The position numbers are program-made. A stretch of 64,000 nt of DNA from Nitrospiraceae bacterium (lineage in GTDB: Bacteria; Nitrospirota; Nitrospiria; Nitrospirales; Nitrospiraceae), in assembly GCA_050246315.1 (NCBI GenBank), contig JBFWWG010000009.1:96001-160000 (forward strand), in the 5' to 3' direction. Below are positions 18,001 through 30,000 of the stretch, piece by piece; position 1 is the first letter of the stretch, and the number at the start of each line of letters is the position of its first letter.

Positions 18001-21000
18001 CTACGACCCGGACGCGCCGACCGGCAGCGGCTGGTGGCATTGGGTGGTCTACAATATTCCCGCCGACGTCACCGAGCTCAAGACCGGCGCAGGCAGCGTC
18101 GAGTCGCCGCAACTGCCGCCCGGCGCGGTGCAGGGCAAGACGGATTTCGGGACTGCCGGATATGGAGGTCCTTGTCCCCCGGTCGGCCACGGCAAACATC
18201 GGTACATCTTCACGGTCCACGCGCTCAAGACCGAGAAGCTGGATGTCCCGGCCGATGCCACTGCGGCATTGATTGGGTTCATGATCAACGCCAACCGATT
18301 GGGCAAGGCGACACTGACTGGAATTTACTCGCGGTAAGATCGGTAAGAATTGTCTGCGGCGGGGGGAGGAATATCGCCGGCAAAGCGGCGCAGCAACCGA
18401 CGGATGCGTCCCTGCTTACAGTAGCTGGACGATACCGGCCGAGAACGTCCTCAGATCTTCGAGCCGAGCTTGAATGATGTCGTAGATCTCATCGTAGTCG
18501 ATCTTCCAATAGACATGAATCAGGAGATTTCGGAATCGCGCCATCTGCCGAAGGCGATCGGCAAGGTCATGGGAAATAATATCGGTCTGCTCTAGCCCAC
18601 ATTATTCATGATGGTTCGTCACGAAACCGCGAAGTCGCCATGCGAGACGGGCGCGTGGAGATGCGAGGGAGGGAGGCATACTTGAAACAGTATGTTGACC
18701 GACCGAGCAGCGAGCCCGCCCGCCATACCGCACTTCGTGTGAGCCGGCGGCTCATCGGGCATAGTCCCTCTATACGAAGCTTCGCTTGGACCGTCGGCTA
18801 TTCATCGTATTTTCGTAGCTGCGCCGACGGAGAAGCACCCTACGGGCATGTCCCTTCCTCAGTGTTTGATACGCCGCCGGAGAAATCCCTTCGACCGGCC
18901 GGGCTTGTCGTAGCGGCGAATGCCCGGTTGCAGTAGAAGCATTCATGAATAATGTGGGCTAGCGCCGTGAAGCAGGCTGCATACTCTTCCGGAACACGCT
19001 GTAGCTGCTTGGCGGATACGTGAAAGCAGAGGGCCAACGCCGCTTCGATGGCGACCAGCAGTCGGTAACAGGCAATATCCAGCTTGTCTTGGTCCGCCAG
19101 GAATTGTTCACGAGAGCCAGAACGGAATTGTTCCAGCCGCGAAATCGCTGCCTCAATCTCTTCGCAGCGTGACCGAACCAGATCCGGGTTCAGCCTCATC
19201 CTGCGAACGCCTCTGCCGTGCTCCGCCGGAGGAGAGGGGCCAAGTCGAGGTATCGCCGGGCGACATCTTCCAAGGTGGCTGAAAGAAACCTCTCGTCCCG
19301 GCACAGGAGGAGGGATCCTCGGAGCACATGGTAGACGAAGGTCACCGGAGCCTCGTTGAGCACGCGGATGTCGACCGGCAATCCGAGCATTGAAGACAGC
19401 CGATCTTCCAGTTCAGCGGCGATTGACGAACTCCGTCCCGACGCCGACGGATGGAGATAGAGCCCAACGTCCACATCGTGGAACATCGTCTCGCTTAAAC
19501 AGGAACCATACAGATAGGCTACAGTCACCTCCGACTCCTTATCCAATTCGCGACTCAAGCCGGCCTGCAACTGAGCGAGCCGCTCCGTCGTCATCGGATA
19601 GGCCCGAGCGAACCTCGCACCCGTATCCTGCTCGTGGCGGTTCATGTGGCGATGATACAACGCTGACGAGATGCGAACAAGCAACGTCCGGGGAGGCGAA
19701 CTCTGGAGGAGGGGAAGCGGGGGATTACTGGCGCAGGTTGGCCCAGGCCTTCTGATACTCCTCGAAGGAATCGACCTCCATCCAGCCTTTGAAGATCGGG
19801 ACGGCCTGGACGCTGTGGCCTGCATCGATGAGGTCCTGAACCATGTCGGTGAAGGAAGCTTTGGCCAGACTCGGCGCTTCGTGGAACGGCCGGTCGGCGC
19901 GGGAGGACAAGGCGTTGCGGTAGAGGCCGGTCATCGCCTGGATGCCCTGTTCGGAAAACATCGCGAGGCCGATGAACTCCGCATGAGCCTGGTCGTGCGG
20001 CACGTGCTGCCCGATCTTGACGATCCGGTGGTCTTCTTCCGGCATCACGAACCGTGACAGGTAGCCGCGGCCCGGCGCCTGCTCGAAGGTCACGAGGTCC
20101 GGATTGATGTGTGGCGCTCTGGCCCCCTGCTGTTGGTGATCGTACCAGGCCAAGTCCACCACCAGCGAAATGTCCGCGGGGCTCTTCAGCAATTTTTCCA
20201 GGATCGCCAGGTCGAAGATGATGTCTCCGTAGAGCACGATGGTCCGCCCGCGCATTTCGTGCTCGGCGCAGAAGAGCGAGAAGAGCTCGCCTGTCTCTTC
20301 GTATCGGTCGTTATCGTAGTAGCGGACGTTCGGAAGCGTGATCGCCTCTTTTTTATAGCCCCGAATCAGGGCGATTTCCTTGATGTCGCAATCGTTCAAG
20401 GCCGCGATCTGGCGCTCCAGGATCGTCTTGCCCTTGATGTCCAGCAGGCATTTGGGCCGGTCTTCGATCAGCGGCAGCAGTTGCTTCTCGAATCCGGCGG
20501 CGGCAATGATGGCGGTGATCTTCTCGCTGCCCACCGGGAGGAATTTCTTTTCGTCCTGCTCCATTTGCGGGACGCCGACGATCTCGTAGACTTCCTTCAG
20601 CTTGACGATCCGGTCGTTGACCGAACCGGGTCTGGTATCCTGCTTGATTACGTCGAGCGCGTCGCGCATGGCCCTGATGCTGGCCCGCACCATCTGATTC
20701 GCGTAAATCACGATTTTGAACCCCGCCTCTTCCAGTTCCGCCGCCGTGACGCCGTCGAAAATCGTCGGGACTACGACGAGCGGGACCTGTCCCGACCAGC
20801 GTGCGGCTACGGTTCGGAGTTCGTCGAATGTCGGGGACTTGGAGTGGATCAGCACGGCGTCGGCGCCGGCGTCGGCGTAGGCTTGCGCCCGCTTTAGGGC
20901 CTCGTCCTGCCCCCAGCCCGCGATGAGCGCTTCCGTTCTGGCGATGACCATGAATTCGGGAATGGTCTGCGCGGCCTTGGCAGCCTGAATCTTTCCGCAA

Positions 21001-27000: not shown

Positions 27001-30000
27001 CTATGAGACGCAGGATGCGAGCGGGGAGGCGTGGCTGTACCTGGCACTTGGCGCGGTGGCGGTCGTCTCCAATGCCCTGGCCTTCTGGCTGGTCACAAGG
27101 CTGACTGCGAAGCCGAGCGGGGCCATCCCGGGCTCAACCGCGCGGGCCAGATGGAAGGATTTTATTCTCAAGAACATCGCGACACGTGATTTTTCCATGA
27201 TCGTGCTGCTCTTCGCCGTGATCGGTCGTCTGGATTGGTTCCTGCTCTTGGCGGTCATCGGATCGGCCTTCTTCGGTCTGGTGCTGACCTGGCTGGTTTT
27301 CTCGACCCGCTCCGCTCGTGCTTCTTAAAATTACCCTCCTCGCCGTCGGGACCCTCACCCTGACGGCCCTCGTGTGGCACATTGGGCCGACCCGCATCCT
27401 GGATGCCGCCGGGCAAGTCGGGCCGCTCGGCCTGCTACTGGTGTTACTCCCGTCGCTGGTCATGTACCTGCTCGAAGCCTACGGTTGGAAATTGACCATG
27501 GGGCCCTATGCCGGGGCCGTTTCCTTTCCGCACCTGTTGGCCATCCGGACGGCCGGTGAAGTCGTCAACATGACCACGCCGACCGCCTATGTAGGCGGCG
27601 AGCCGCTCAAAGCCTATCTGCTCAAACGTGCAGAGGTCCCGTTCGTCGACGGATTGGCCTCGGTCGTGCTGGCGAAGACCCTGATGACGATCGCGCAGGT
27701 ACTGTTCATCCTGTTAGGGCTGGTGATCGCGTTCTGGCTGCTCGGATCGGAAGGGTCCTCCGGGCAGATGGTGATGGCCTCCATCGTCAGTGTCGGCATC
27801 TTGGCGTTCGGCGTCGCCGGCTTCATCGCAGTGCAGCGATGGGGCCTATTCACCGGTGCGCTTGGGCTGTTGCGGAGAGTCAATCTCCGAGTGGCCTACC
27901 TCGAAGCTCGGGAAAGCAAGCTGCGCGAACTGGACCGGACGATCCTGAATTTCTACGCCAAGGATCGGCGGAATTTTCTCTGCTCCACGGGATTGTATTT
28001 CGGCGGCTGGCTCGCTGAGGCCGTGGAAGTCTACGTGATGCTGGCCTGCCTCGGCCTTCCCGTGACGGCTCTCGCGGCGCTCGCCATCGGATCGCTGTCG
28101 GCCTTCATCAAGGGCGGGACCTTCTTCATTCCCGGGAGCTTGGGCGCACAGGATGGAGGCAATCTCCTCCTGGTCACGGCGTTCGGCTACAGCGACGTGG
28201 CCGGCATCACCTTCGCTCTGCTGCGACGCTTCCGCGAGATCGTCTGGATCGGCATCGGTCTGGTATGCCTGGCCCTGTTGGATGGGCGGACGGTGGCAAG
28301 TCGAGGCGATCAATCAGGCTGACGTTCTGGCTGCGAACTACGCCAGCCGGTGTTTCGAAAGGGCTCTGGTGGGATCGACTTTCCTTGCCGGCACGGTGCT
28401 CGCGTTCCAAGACGGCGTGCAATGGAGCCAGCGCATTGCGAAGAAGACCGCTGAGATCACGGAGGGGAAAGGGATCACGGTCCCGGACGTTGATGCAGCC
28501 GACGCCGGATGGAATGTTCGGATTAAACGCGACGATCCGAACCGACGAGCAGGTATGAACCGAGAGGTAGTGCTTCTTGTTGGCCCGGGAGAAAAACCGC
28601 TCGCCGACGTGATAGGTCGGCATCCTGTGGCCGAAATCATAACGAGTCTTCGGAAAGAGTTTCATGACCAACTGATGCACCGGTTGGCATCTTGCCTTGT
28701 GCCGCTCCGGTAGTGACGTTAGGTGCTGCTGAATCGTGTTCGCGATCCTCGTCGTTCCGACCTTCCGAACAGTTCCTGCGAATTGTCATAACGAATCACC
28801 GCGCTGGAGGCTCGATCGTGCACCCTCGCGCGGGGGCCGTCGCGCAAGATCAGCGAATTTGGCGATGGGCGGGAGAGGAAGGCTTCGCCAGCCCGCGGTG
28901 CCACCGGCGTAAGTGAGGCAAGGTCGGCAGCCTCGTCTTTCGGTTGAAGAGATAGTTTTCGACCACACCAAAGAGACTGTAATCCACGAAGAGGGGGCGA
29001 TCGGCAATCAGGAACGGTGACGATGCCAACAGGTTGTCGAGCGGTTTCAACAGTTCCTCGAATTGAGCACAGAGATATGTGCGGTGGCTCGTCCATTCCT
29101 GGAGACAGCCTCGTCCGAATTTCCGCTCCTTGTGCCGAACCACCATGACGCGCTCGACAAGGGGACGAGACGGGATCACGTAGGTGTCGTTCACCTTGAA
29201 CCCGACCATTTCAAGATCATTTTCAATGTAGCGGGATAGGATGAGCTGCAAGCCTTCGAGTGCTTTTGGAAACAGATTCAGGTTGAAGCGGCGATCGAGA
29301 TACCGTGCCACCTCTTGCCCGAAATCCGTGACATCACACACTGCGTGCCTGCCATCGAGTACACAAGGCACCGTGTGGCCGCGACCGTTGGTGGCGCTGA
29401 TTATTGAGGCCCGCTCGTGATAGGGAATGTTGCGCAGACGGAACGGGATGCCGTTCCGTTCAAGCATATGCCGCACCGCGATACAGAACGGCGACCAGGG
29501 AAATTGAATCAGCGTGAGCATGAGGATGAGACGTTATATGGCGCAAGCGGGGACAGAATTCAAGTGCGGCGGCGCCGAGTGTGAGTGACACGATCCAGGA
29601 CCGATCCTCATCCTGGAGACGTCCTCTGCGTGTTAAGGCCGGCGGTTTCGAGGACCGCTCGAACGGCCTCGATGACGAGCTCCGGCTGATCGAATTGAAT
29701 GAAGTGGCTGCTCCGGTCGGCGAAGACTTGCCGGCTGTTGGTGGAGAGCTTCATGAGGTCCGCCTGTAGTTGAAGCCACATCTGCCGGAACCGCGCCATG
29801 TCCACGGTGGGCGGCATGTCGGGCCACCAGGTTGGTCCGGTGGCGGTGAGAATGGTCAACGGCAGATCACCGAGCGGGTCTGTGCGCTGGACTTGAATGC
29901 AGGTCTCCTCCAACGCGGAGCCTTCGTCGGCCATGGTCGCGAAATAGCGTGTTTGCGTCCATCCGGCTCGGAGCATGGGACGAATCTCGGGAGGCACCTT

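Follow-up and report, generated by a model that had tools for sequence, protein, structure and literature searches.

The stretch of DNA analyzed here (64 kb, hereafter the window) comes from a Nitrospira of the nitrite-oxidizer type and carries a single plus-strand operon in the order ppdA-ppdB-aept-pntC-CDP-alcohol phosphotransferase-flippase-like gene, the phosphotransferase being preceded by a nucleotidyltransferase-like part. PpdA (22683..23237; Pfam TPP_enzyme_N) and PpdB (23238..23849; TPP_enzyme_C) correspond to the N-terminal (TPP PYR-domain) and C-terminal (TPP PP-domain) subunits of phosphonopyruvate decarboxylase. They are followed by a 2-aminoethylphosphonate (AEP) aminotransferase (AEPT; 23961..25055; Aminotran_5), a stand-alone PntC-like cytidylyltransferase (PntC2; 25052..25774; NTP_transferase/NTP_transf_3), a two-domain membrane transferase of 499 aa (25829..27328; CDP-OH_P_transf at residues 310-449) and an LPG_synthase_TM/HpnL-like, flippase-like membrane protein (27318..28322; LPG_synthase_TM, 9.5e-30). 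Divergent from the operon, on the minus strand, lie two small exported paralogs, A (21475..22032) and B (22054..22677), and a 559-aa fusion of a PEP-mutase-like domain with a nucleotidyltransferase (19725..21404), which matches Pfam PEP_mutase over residues 7-251 (E 5.9e-57) and NTP_transf_3 over residues 316-408 (E 8.5e-8). The limits given in a preliminary description are window coordinates that coincide exactly with ORF ends, confirming the observation as a whole, and the roles it assigned were recovered with Pfam and NCBIfam, with all NCBIfam equivalog scores below the curated cut-offs.

The aept stop and the pntC start overlap by 4 bases, and the transferase and flippase-like genes by 11 bases, which suggests translational coupling. 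A scan for promoters, based on consensus matches only, returned four promoter-like sites against 1.9 ± 1.3 in shuffles; one of them, a sigma-70-like match in the divergent intergenic region (TTGAGA-18-TATAAT, 11/12; 22664..22693, plus strand), suggests that ppdA starts near 22722 and not at 22683. Homolog alignments start at PpdA residues 14-20. Contigs from RNA libraries of three studies match parts of all the genes, mostly free of mismatches; this support consists of contigs only, which may stem from carried-over DNA and do not fix the strand.

The two small ORFs between the mutase-like gene and ppdA (185 and 207 aa; 21475..22677) have signal-peptide-like N-termini, and their products are 40% identical; B is likely to start at 22587, giving a protein of 177 aa. 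No Pfam or NCBIfam domain was found in A. For B, 262 homologs were retrieved at E ≤ 1e-3, none with a Pfam domain and all organism-named ones from Nitrospira or Nitrospiraceae, and a fold search with its AF2 model (pLDDT 85.8) gave no confident match. Homologs of these proteins adjoin the operon in 16/16 sampled Nitrospiraceae loci.

Against TIGR03297, the profile of the fused decarboxylase (360 positions; cut-off for the fused form, 312.5 bits), PpdA scores 132 bits over positions 1-156 and PpdB 180.6 bits over positions 169-358. The two subunits are 35-37% and 39-43% identical to the N- and C-terminal halves, respectively, of the fused AepY of Mycetohabitans, Burkholderia cenocepacia and Roseomonas. 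PpdB also reaches 187.8 bits with sulfopyruvate decarboxylase beta, below the cut-off of 221.5. AEPT matches the PhnW-AepZ family TIGR03301 over 354/355 positions (342.5 bits, below the cut-off of 360.8) and is 35-41% identical to its counterparts in proteobacterial clusters. PntC2 carries the canonical GIGKR...PK signature, and among solved structures it is closest to the T. denticola PntC-AEPT (6pd1; 1.6e-15, residues 2-238), followed by LicC (1jyk); G9, G11, R13, P22, K23 and E197 are invariant in 20/20 sequences. With residue roles as given in PMC6697681, PntC2 keeps four of the five residues highlighted for the assayed Tde-PntC, and at the position of Glu104 it has Asp, as LicC does.

Residues 1 to ~285 of the membrane transferase form a nucleotidyltransferase-fold domain that lacks the NTP signature, while the CDP-alcohol phosphotransferase, residues ~290-499, keeps its D351xxD354G355xxA358R359x8G368xxxD372xxxD376 motif intact, and the residues of this catalytic motif are invariant in 30/30 homologs. 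The best folds for its AF2 model (pLDDT 83.9) are IPCT-DIPPS (4mnd; E 1.2e-15, TMt 0.73) and AF2299 (TMt 0.71-0.74). Because the nearest solved relatives use either soluble partners (CDP-inositol together with inositol phosphate) or, as the donor, CDP-diacylglycerol, neither the donor nor the acceptor can be deduced from homology. The flippase-like protein scores above the cut-off for the TIGR00374 flippase-like domain (80.2 versus 43.2 bits) and below that for HpnL (164.2 versus 195.65 bits), and it is 31-33% identical to its counterpart in the clusters of Mycetohabitans, B. cenocepacia and Roseomonas.

What is new about this cluster is the active-site loop of its mutase-like fusion, here called type A. 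The PEP-mutase-like domain (residues 1-290) is followed by a LicC/PntC-like nucleotidyltransferase domain (~295-559), which reads AAGFEKQL where a GXG(T/S)R signature would be expected. Published surveys recognize the mutase by the motif EDKX5NS, whereas the type A loop is EDNVYPKRCSF, departing from the Ppm signature by K116 to N and N122 to C; its PKRC is identical to that in the same genome's PrpB (EDQELPKRCGH). The NCBIfam PEP_mutase score is 278 bits, below the cut-off of 319.55. Nevertheless, type A scores 212-285 bits against Ppm/PPH versus at most 150 against lyases, and a PDB sequence search returned Ppm 5unc (2e-83), PPH 2dua (2.5e-68) and Mytilus Ppm 1m1b (1.4e-61). In loop alignments it retains the equivalents of D58, D85, D87, E114, K120, S123, R159 and H190 and lacks the lyase GH dipeptide. 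In a tree with a single outgroup, the canonical Ppm/PPH sequences (13) group together with support 0.991; all 72 variants fall outside this clade, and the tree did not recover them as monophyletic. No second Ppm was found in the genome, its other PF13714 matches being PrpB in the methylcitrate cluster and one weak hit of 30 bits.

The distribution of type A bears directly on its function. Among 201 sampled Nitrospirales genomes, type A (52 genomes) and a canonical mutase-nucleotidyltransferase fusion encoded away from the operon (type B; 134 genomes) are near-exclusive alternatives, with both in 2 genomes and neither in 17. Within genera the complements are exact (for example, 13 + 29 = 42/42 in g2 and 3 + 1 = 4/4 in g7), and sister genomes with the canonical fusion keep the same operon. 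Where Nitrospiraceae genomes have neither type, the transferase is also absent in 4/5. A DNA pattern for EDNxxPKRCSF located the variant loop in at least 120 species genomes from about ten phyla, and all 80 fetched matches fall within Ppm homologs. Of 53 type A loci outside Nitrospirales, 38 (26 of the 34 with full flanks) have ppd, 32 pntC and 23 aept no more than 7 kb away; at the other 15, of which 8 have full flanks and six are Binatia, ppd was not found within this distance. In Sorangium cellulosum So ce56, type A is accompanied by one lyase-type paralog, and there is no EDKX5NS protein. We found no assayed member of the variant group in the literature. The near-exclusive alternation, the spread over some ten phyla and the linkage to ppd together suggest that type A probably makes the C-P bond despite its non-canonical loop. 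The pathway had been described as complete; with a mutase that departs from EDKX5NS and falls below the NCBIfam cut-off, completeness is a matter of inference, though a well supported one.

Conservation of the gene set across Nitrospirales, which the preliminary description had proposed, is borne out. All six plus-strand genes are colinear in 20/20 sampled loci (16 genera, four families), a conservation of gene order far beyond chance, and the flippase-like partner adjoins the operon in 19/20. At the f4 locus (L025), the only trace of the transferase is a match to its C-terminal domain that includes a stop codon, and no HpnL-like match turned up. The transferase was detected in 382/401 genomes of the order (306/318 among high-quality ones) and a mutase fusion of either type in 184/201.

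The novelty claimed for the cluster, on the other hand, does not hold. Its architecture is that of the 'Group 1 phosphonolipid' or 'Burkholderiales_CDP-OH' type, as already published in PMC8942020 and PMC5987646 (Fig. 7), and pepM in Nitrospirota is mentioned in PMC10734540. All seven components have homologs of 31-41% identity in the Group 1 clusters of Mycetohabitans and B. cenocepacia, and the pairing of pntC with the transferase recurs in proteobacterial AEP clusters. Judged by sequence, the Nitrospira cluster is of the same class and not a new kind. According to PMC8942020, the phosphonolipid product is not characterized for any Group 1 cluster, and our literature search found no lipid study of Nitrospira.

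The explanation we favor, at a probability of roughly 55%, is a pathway that tailors the head group of a membrane lipid with a phosphonyl group. The type A domain, which has the fold and keeps the metal and phosphoryl ligands around a non-canonical loop, would convert PEP to phosphonopyruvate. Homology and established pathway logic suggest that the two-subunit TPP decarboxylase then yields phosphonoacetaldehyde, pulling the unfavorable mutase step forward, and that AEPT forms AEP. By its likeness to Tde-PntC, PntC2 would combine CTP and AEP into CMP-AEP. The CDP-alcohol phosphotransferase domain, by analogy with choline/ethanolamine phosphotransferases, may transfer the aminoethylphosphonyl group to a lipid hydroxyl with release of CMP, diacylglycerol being the simplest candidate acceptor, and the HpnL/MprF-TM-like protein may carry the product across the inner membrane. 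A membrane lipid is our best guess for the acceptor: the conserved operon contains no glycosyltransferase or polysaccharide-export gene, which, together with the near-constant flippase-like partner, argues for a lipid rather than a glycan.

An acceptor other than bulk membrane lipid, such as a soluble polyol or phosphate ester (giving a DIP-like phosphonate diester), a lipid-linked glycan or an envelope polymer, seems unlikely. IPCT-DIPPS and AF2299 do handle small soluble CDP-alcohols, DIPPS transferring to soluble inositol phosphate; the transferase shares the two-domain architecture of IPCT-DIPPS; and most characterized bacterial AEP decorations sit on glycans, according to PMC6697681. Yet the conserved operon also lacks sugar-activating and LicD-like genes, no myo-inositol-phosphate synthase gene was found beside it among the scanned ORFs, and a soluble cytoplasmic product would hardly account for a flippase-like membrane partner. 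A hopanoid acceptor, in which the same route to CMP-AEP would end on a bacteriohopanepolyol hydroxyl and give a phosphono-hopanoid instead of a glycerolipid, is a weak lead and decidedly improbable. It is suggested by Roseomonas marmotae p1318-3, where the homologous cluster sits between MMPL/VacJ-like/polyprenyl synthetase genes and ispH-hpnH-hpnG-shc, by Mycetohabitans, where it adjoins dxs with an MMPL gene nearby, and by the flippase-like protein being closest to HpnL of hopanoid loci, albeit below that cut-off. In the present genome, shc and hpnH lie on contig C15, and shc was detected in 197/201 Nitrospirales genomes, including cluster-less genera, which makes its co-occurrence uninformative. 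The counts are mostly against this acceptor: homologs of SHC, HpnH, HpnG, HpnM, IspH and Dxs number zero in the window, at 20 Nitrospirales loci (±9 kb) and at 80 type A loci (±7 kb), and are absent within ±20 kb of the B. cenocepacia cluster, while shc was found in only 14/30 non-Nitrospirales type A genomes, in 4/10 of those with a CDP-OH match beside the cluster, and in neither complete Sorangium genome.

It is also distinctly unlikely that type A is not a PEP mutase, in which case the head group built by the operon in type-A-only genomes, this one included, would contain no phosphonate, if one were built at all. A different reaction would be indicated by the cysteine in the loop, which the superfamily's C-C lyases also have, and the PrpB-like PKRC, the two breaks in EDKX5NS, the sub-cut-off scores, the exclusion from the canonical clade and the slightly better score of PpdB as a sulfopyruvate decarboxylase all lean that way. 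Against this stand the far closer relationship to Ppm/PPH, the retained Ser123 and phosphoryl ligands R159 and H190, the missing GH dipeptide, the near-exclusive alternation with canonical Ppm-NT among sister genomes sharing this operon, and the linkage, across many phyla, to ppd, aept and pntC. A split IPCT/DIPPS-type system is scarcely credible; pntC and the transferase would then have no tie to the neighboring phosphonate genes and would make CDP-inositol and an inositol-phosphate product. In NCBIfam, the transferase scores best against IPCT/DIPPS (84.6 bits), which ranks second for PntC2 (85.5 bits); several database records bear this name, and 4mnd is the best fold match. Both bit scores, however, are far under the 580-bit cut-off, PntC2 is closest to the AEP-specific Tde-PntC, and both genes are fixed in the operon with ppdAB and aept in 20/20 loci and paired in proteobacterial AEP clusters as well.

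Of the preliminary interpretation, then, the route from PEP to AEP, cytidylyl activation, a membrane CDP-alcohol-type phosphotransferase and a flippase-like protein stand, and the novelty does not. Most likely, this gene set makes AEP, activates it and attaches it to a membrane lipid; that such phosphonolipids might confer resistance to phages or phosphatases, or serve as biomarkers, is speculation.

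The phosphonate genes of the window, whose existence and positions had been claimed in the preliminary description, are borne out as a cluster, with ORF ends that match exactly. On the minus strand lie two ORFs of the exported type (207 and 185 aa), both with signal-peptide-like N-termini, and a 559-aa mutase fusion that combines a PEP_mutase domain (residues 7 to 251) with an NTP_transf_3 domain (residues 316 to 408). The plus strand encodes two half-size TPP proteins, PpdA and PpdB, corresponding to a split phosphonopyruvate decarboxylase; a class-V aminotransferase, Aept, for 2-aminoethylphosphonate (AEP); a 240-aa nucleotidyltransferase, here called PntC2 (25052..25774); a 499-aa protein with CDP-OH_P_transf at residues 310 to 449, here called the transferase (25829..27328); and a flippase-like LPG_synthase_TM protein (27318..28322). 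The aept and pntC genes overlap by 4 bases, those of the transferase and the flippase-like protein by 11. NCBIfam names are as expected, namely PEP mutase, phosphonopyruvate decarboxylase for both halves, PhnW-AepZ aminotransferase, and flippase-like domain/HpnL, and the equivalog scores of the cluster proteins all fall below the curated cut-offs. A sigma-70-like match of 11/12 at 22664-22693, a consensus match only, suggests a ppdA start near 22722.

Directly 3′ of the mutase gene and on the same strand (18840-19825, minus), an MNT/Polbeta nucleotidyltransferase ORF and a HepT-like ribonuclease ORF form a type VII toxin-antitoxin-like pair, which we place outside the conserved cluster because matches are limited to pieces of the MNT ORF in a few related loci. 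At 16798-18337 the cluster is further flanked by genes for a TetR-family regulator and, divergently, a PEBP-family protein. A homolog of the regulator was seen within 9 kb in 11 of the 16 Nitrospiraceae loci, and the regulator may control the cluster. Downstream (28850-30624, minus), a GST-like protein is encoded together with an alpha/beta hydrolase, and homologs of each are again found next to the operon in some relatives (GST in loci L013, L014, and L018; the hydrolase in L006, L014, and L021). Assembled contigs from the RNA libraries of three sludge or wastewater studies carry stretches of each gene, mostly free of mismatches; they are compatible with transcription but, being contigs, can neither rule out DNA nor show the strand. 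Examples are 19718-21386, the whole mutase gene, and 23288-24847, spanning ppdB-aept. The flanking genes are covered too, and hence there is no silent control. In one RNA run, X8, contigs of 8 to 10 kb at 95 to 99% identity resemble a related strain or DNA.

The transferase was detected (E ≤ 1e-20) in 382 of the 401 genomes of the order, a tally that takes in two unpublished genomes (G394 and G280), as well as in 306/318 high-quality genomes and 49 of 54 genera. To these counts we can add gene order from 20 loci, each covering ±9 kb around the transferase: 16 from Nitrospiraceae genomes of 13 genera, two from family f2, and one each from families f3 and f4. All 20 show colinear ppdA-ppdB-aept-pntC-transferase, and in 19 the flippase-like gene comes next, the exception being the f4 locus. 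There (L025, genome G004), a 220-aa frame with one internal TAA at 9031-9645 matches the C-terminal domain of the transferase alone, with no HpnL-like gene after it, and this version may be shortened or decaying. A tblastn search of plasmids with the transferase gave no match, and the names recovered for ten distant homologs, one Nitrospinota and one Nitrospiria, are too few to place the family. The mutase fusion adjoins the operon in just 11 of the 20 loci; the other nine genomes encode a fusion of about 544 aa elsewhere, 33 to 35% identical to that of the window. We refer to the window's fusion as type A and to the remotely encoded one, with its canonical loop EDKLFPKTNSF, as type B. In genus g3 (genomes G024 and G093), type B is followed by a second, fused Ppd of 386 aa (L029, 4738-5898; L030, 7679-8785), which is 31 to 39% identical to split PpdAB; these g3 genomes therefore have two Ppd versions.

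The most interesting element of the cluster is its mutase, a non-canonical, widespread, ppd-linked variant. Type A has the Ppm-like PF13714 fold (Pfam E 5.9e-57), and its closest structure in a PDB sequence search is Streptomyces PEP phosphomutase 5unc (2e-83), followed by phosphonopyruvate hydrolase (PPH) 2dua and the Mytilus mutase 1m1b. Solved Ppm structures score 212 to 285 bits against it, with 285 bits for 5unc and 214 for Mytilus Ppm versus 150 for petal death protein. The equivalents of Mytilus D58, D85, D87, E114, K120, S123, R159, and H190, the Mg2+ and phosphoryl ligands, are aligned and kept. With these likenesses to known PEP mutase (EC 5.4.2.9) go the adjacent ppd and a fused PF12804 nucleotidyltransferase (NT), the latter as in about a third of Ppm enzymes. 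The loop, however, is unlike: instead of the EDKX5NS motif, type A has EDNVYPKRCS, with Asn for Lys116 and Cys for Asn122 at the hallmark positions, and EDNV[YF]PKRCSF is found in 14/14 type A sequences of the order. The loop Cys occupies the same column as that of superfamily lyases (KKCGH in petal death protein, KRCGH in this genome's PrpB), the site of their catalytic Cys. Type A also scores 278 bits for the equivalog TIGR02320, below the cut-off of 319.55. The ESM Atlas gave nothing beyond look-alikes at family level, under the name 'isocitrate lyase/PEP mutase family protein'. The genome of the window holds no other Ppm candidate, its remaining PF13714 hits being PrpB of the methylcitrate cluster and one weak hit of 30 bits.

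Neither type keeps the GXG(T/S)R signature in its fused NT domain, where type A has AAGFEKQL (residues about 295 to 559; 20520-19725, minus) and type B, like proteobacterial AepX, has AASRGxxL. Only the stand-alone PntC has the canonical signature, and each cluster keeps two NTs. In a small tree, type B groups with AepX of Burkholderia, Mycetohabitans, and Roseomonas, and type A is a separate branch beside the clade of Ppm, PPH, and type B. A larger tree with 72 variant sequences likewise keeps type A outside the canonical clade, as 13 canonical Ppm/PPH sequences group with a support of 0.991 and no variant inside. The variants were not recovered as a single clade in the tree with one PrpB outgroup, a rooting that leaves clade versus grade unsettled.

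How the two types are distributed bears on what type A does. Of 201 genomes sampled from the order, 52 have type A (E ≤ 1e-150) and 134 have type B; exactly one of them occurs in 182 genomes, both in two (G011 and G154), and neither in 17, counts that come from kin and, being non-independent, are not a statistic. The types complement each other within genera (A plus B: 13 + 29 of 42 in g2, 0 + 14 of 14 in g3, 3 + 1 of 4 in g7, and 0 + 38 of 38 in g35). Five Nitrospiraceae genomes have neither type, and four of them (g4, g10, g11; all 100% complete) are also without the transferase. This pattern is the expectation if either enzyme feeds the same operon, and the near-exclusive alternation with a canonical Ppm-NT would indirectly back a conversion of PEP to phosphonopyruvate by type A. 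Type B matches only 49 to 55% identical to the type B query, in genomes G174, G190, G114, G086, G104, G064, G008, and G011, may represent a third mutase-fusion subtype.

In the sections of three papers that deal with the point, PEP mutase is defined for surveys by PF13714 plus an EDKX5NS filter (PMC6697681, PMC8942020, PMC12723261), and as late as December 2025 a perfect match to EDKX5NS is given as the criterion for C-P bond formation (PMC12723261). Among filter-removed sequences, Rice et al. mention, in the portion concerned, only 22 that are fused to another domain (PMC6697681). A degenerate DNA pattern for EDNxxPKRCSF, for which we estimate about two chance matches in the collection, gave at least 120 hits in contigs that represent each species by one genome. 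We fetched 80 of these loci, comprising 27 Nitrospirales-type records and 53 from other groups, and in 80/80 the match lies within a homolog of the window's mutase. The 53 loci stem from Planctomycetota, Myxococcota (including Sorangium cellulosum So ce56, Sorangium So ce1099, and Minicystis rosea), Acidobacteriota, Actinomycetota, Binatia, Nitrospinota, Thermodesulfobacteriota, and one archaeal MAG; 39 of them show the NT fusion. Within 7 kb, 38 have ppd (26/34 among those with full flanks), 32 have pntC, and 23 have aept, while CDP-OH and HpnL-like hits number 10 and 7. No ppd was found within 7 kb in the other 15, eight of which have full flanks and six of which are Binatia. Sorangium cellulosum So ce56 has two PF13714 proteins (E ≤ 1e-20), type A and one of the lyase type, and no EDKX5NS protein. 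At two Sorangium loci (L058 and L075), a CDP-alcohol phosphotransferase hit, weak (24 to 25%) and on the other strand (10678-11064, minus), comes after the variant ppm-ppdA-ppdB-pntC operon, and aept gave no hit within 7 kb of these operons.

For the proposed activation step, the best solved relative of PntC2 is the AEP-specific PntC of Treponema denticola (Tde1415, 6PD1/6PD2; Rice et al. 2019), which it matches over its whole length (6pd1, 1.6e-15, residues 2 to 238), followed by LicC. PntC2 carries the GXG(T/S)RX4-8PK signature with the counterparts of Arg15 and Lys25, in the form GIGKR...PK; residues G9, G11, R13, P22, and K23 are invariant in 20/20 aligned homologs, and the Lys153 equivalent is kept. 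The AEP amine is bound in Tde-PntC at Glu104 and Glu196, where LicC has Asp at both, according to the relevant section of PMC6697681. PntC2 keeps the second as E197 and, like LicC, has Asp at the first (D104), both residues being invariant in 20/20; it further differs from the T. denticola protein in standing alone rather than being fused to AEPT.

The transferase has AF2299 and IPCT-DIPPS as sequence relatives. In its AlphaFold model (30 homologs, pLDDT 83.9), the best fold matches are to 4mnd (E 1.2e-15, TMt 0.73) and to AF2299 structures, 4o6m among them (TMt 0.71 to 0.74); the first ~285 residues correspond to nucleotidyltransferase folds, and helices span residues 287 to 494. On the six-helix membrane domain lies the motif D-x2-D-G-x2-A-R-x8-G-x3-D-x3-D, whose residues D351, D354, G355, A358, R359, G368, D372, and D376 are invariant in 30/30. 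The N-domain lacks the GXGXR signature, with VVTARNVFTS versus LAAGIGKRL in PntC2, and is read as a probably non-catalytic nucleotidyltransferase-fold domain. The protein scores 84.6 bits, versus a cut-off of 580, for NF041135, the family of IPCT/DIPPS enzymes with an active N-terminal cytidylyltransferase. Two domains, the fold, and an identical motif are shared with IPCT-DIPPS of A. fulgidus (4MND) and AF2299 (4O6M/4O6N/4Q7C), whereas identity in structural alignments is 18 to 19%, the NTP-binding signature is missing from the N-domain, and the gene is accompanied by phosphonate genes rather than by one for inositol-phosphate synthase. In the eukaryote Tetrahymena, AEP-glycerolipids are made via CMP-AEP and an ethanolamine-phosphotransferase-type enzyme. 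By analogy, the operon would employ the same chemistry, CMP-AEP + diacylglycerol -> phosphonolipid + CMP, through the CDP-alcohol phosphotransferase superfamily. No CMP-AEP lipid transferase was found in the literature among the matches listed.

The preliminary description held phosphonolipids as a conserved membrane component of Nitrospirales to be new; a new kind of system is not supported, and the cluster is most likely a distant homologous member of the published Group 1 class. In the sections devoted to this family, Li and Horsman (2022; PMC8942020) equate 'Burkholderiales_CDP-OH', with 318 neighborhoods, with the Group 1 phosphonolipids of Yu et al. 2013, list a seven-gene core (Ppm, Ppd, AEPT, a 2OG oxygenase, two PntCs, one of them Ppm-fused, and two phospholipid-type genes), and state that no phosphonolipid from the family has been characterized. 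The same cluster type, 'hpnL' included, is drawn for a lichen Nostoc (PMC5987646, Fig. 7 legend). The window has in common with Group 1 the Ppm-NT fusion, Ppd, AEPT, a second, stand-alone PntC, the CDP-alcohol phosphotransferase, and the LPG_synthase_TM/HpnL-like protein; that is, 6/7 of the core is present and homologous. Every part is matched in the Mycetohabitans and Burkholderia cenocepacia clusters at about 31 to 41% identity (transferase C-domain 34%, flippase-like protein 31 to 32%, PntC 33%, mutase fusion 34 to 35%, Ppd halves 35 to 39%, AEPT 38 to 41%), and in the Roseomonas cluster all components except the transferase are. From this homology of components, the Nitrospirales version is best read as a distant member of the class.

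Several features nonetheless set it apart from Group 1. Ppd is split into two ORFs; the mutase in the window's genome is the non-canonical type A; the transferase has an extra NT-fold domain of ~285 aa, the proteobacterial Group 1 transferases measuring 200 to 231 aa; and small exported paralogs are added in Nitrospiraceae. The 2OG-Fe(II) oxygenase, part of the Group 1 core, is missing from the operon and from 20/20 related loci. Two unlinked homologs of the Mycetohabitans oxygenase (HalD-like, PF23169) are encoded in the window's genome at 46 to 49% identity, and the head group may therefore be either AEP or 1-hydroxy-AEP. These genes (C6:42958-43641 and C1:660024-660707; L170 and L171) differ in their neighbors, which are lolA and ftsK in one case and an FGE-sulfatase-family gene in the other. 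Across 15 genomes, a HalD-like oxygenase was seen in 3/6 that bear the cluster and in 3/9 without a transferase match, those three being only 87 to 92% complete. Literature searches on Nitrospira phosphonolipids returned nothing relevant as judged from titles and abstracts, on Nitrospira phosphonate plus phosphoenolpyruvate mutase no paper, and on polar lipids nothing related; pepM in Nitrospirota is mentioned in a passage of a lake metagenome paper (PMC10734540).

All 16 Nitrospiraceae loci carry between one and three of the small exported paralogs, and none of the four loci of other families does. The family has 262 detected members, those with names all Nitrospira or Nitrospiraceae, and is without a Pfam domain. 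The model of the protein is confident (pLDDT 85.8), and Foldseek against the PDB yielded nothing at E ≤ 1e-3. A YdcD double-wing fold reached Z 8.6 in VIA-align (rmsd 3.3 Å, 111 residues), with the next match at 6.5; since Z values in this range are common, we assign no fold.

Of the pathway read into these genes by the preliminary description, the part up to CMP-AEP probably stands, as judged from homology and conservation; for the transfer onto lipid or glycan that it went on to propose, the acceptor has to be weighed. We favor a lipid, given the integral-membrane transferase, the always-adjacent flippase-like protein, and the lack of glycan genes. A hopanoid as the acceptor of the AEP group is suggested by the Roseomonas cluster, which is embedded among hopanoid genes (MMPL, VacJ-like, and polyprenyl synthetase on one side; ispH, hpnH, hpnG, and shc on the other), and by that of Mycetohabitans, which abuts dxs and has an MMPL gene nearby. 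Yet neither the window nor any of the 20 Nitrospirales and 80 variant loci contains homologs of SHC, HpnH, HpnG, HpnM, IspH, or Dxs, and none of these genes lies within ±20 kb of the B. cenocepacia cluster. Outside Nitrospirales, shc was detected in only 14/30 variant genomes, in 4 of the 10 whose cluster has a CDP-OH hit next to it, and in neither of the two complete Sorangium genomes; within the order it occurs in 197/201 genomes and therefore cannot discriminate. Nor does the flippase-like protein qualify as HpnL, scoring 164.2 bits for TIGR03476, versus a cut-off of 195.65, and lying away from a hopanoid locus. A lipid is a reasonable candidate acceptor, and diacylglycerol would be the simplest choice.

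Hopanoid enzymes are encoded by the window's genome on another contig (C15 15601-36995; L045 and L046). The locus runs from ispH, shc, and an hpnG-like gene through MlaE/MlaF/MlaD-like transporter genes and HpnM-like and Omp85-family genes to dxs, ispG, and hpnH. Immediately upstream are genes for a PhoR/PhoB-like pair and for a Pit-like transporter.

Nitrospirales comprise the main nitrite oxidizers as well as comammox bacteria and play a key part in nitrification in soil, in water, and in treatment plants. We put at roughly 55% the probability that the EDN-x2-PKRCSF proteins, which at least 120 genomes of different species encode (Nitrospirota, Planctomycetota, Myxococcota, Acidobacteriota, Actinomycetota, Binatia, and others), are working PEP mutases missed by every motif-filtered survey. 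Phosphonate capacity in soils, sediments, and wastewater would then be undercounted; with either type of mutase, nearly all Nitrospirales would bear an envelope C-P lipid; and the loop Cys may mark a C-C lyase/C-P mutase intermediate. If a widespread, ppd-linked variant bears Asn and Cys in place of the two hallmark residues, gene-based estimates of phosphonate producers would miss a whole group, and the variant offers a natural experiment on the role of the loop residues. Both the C-P lipid and the mutase variant are within reach of routine enzymology and lipidomics, and, if the reading is true, the predicted but never-seen Group 1 product gains several culturable test organisms. A near-universal phosphonate head-group pathway, if true, would mean an added C-P pool and a possible lipid marker in nitrifying systems.
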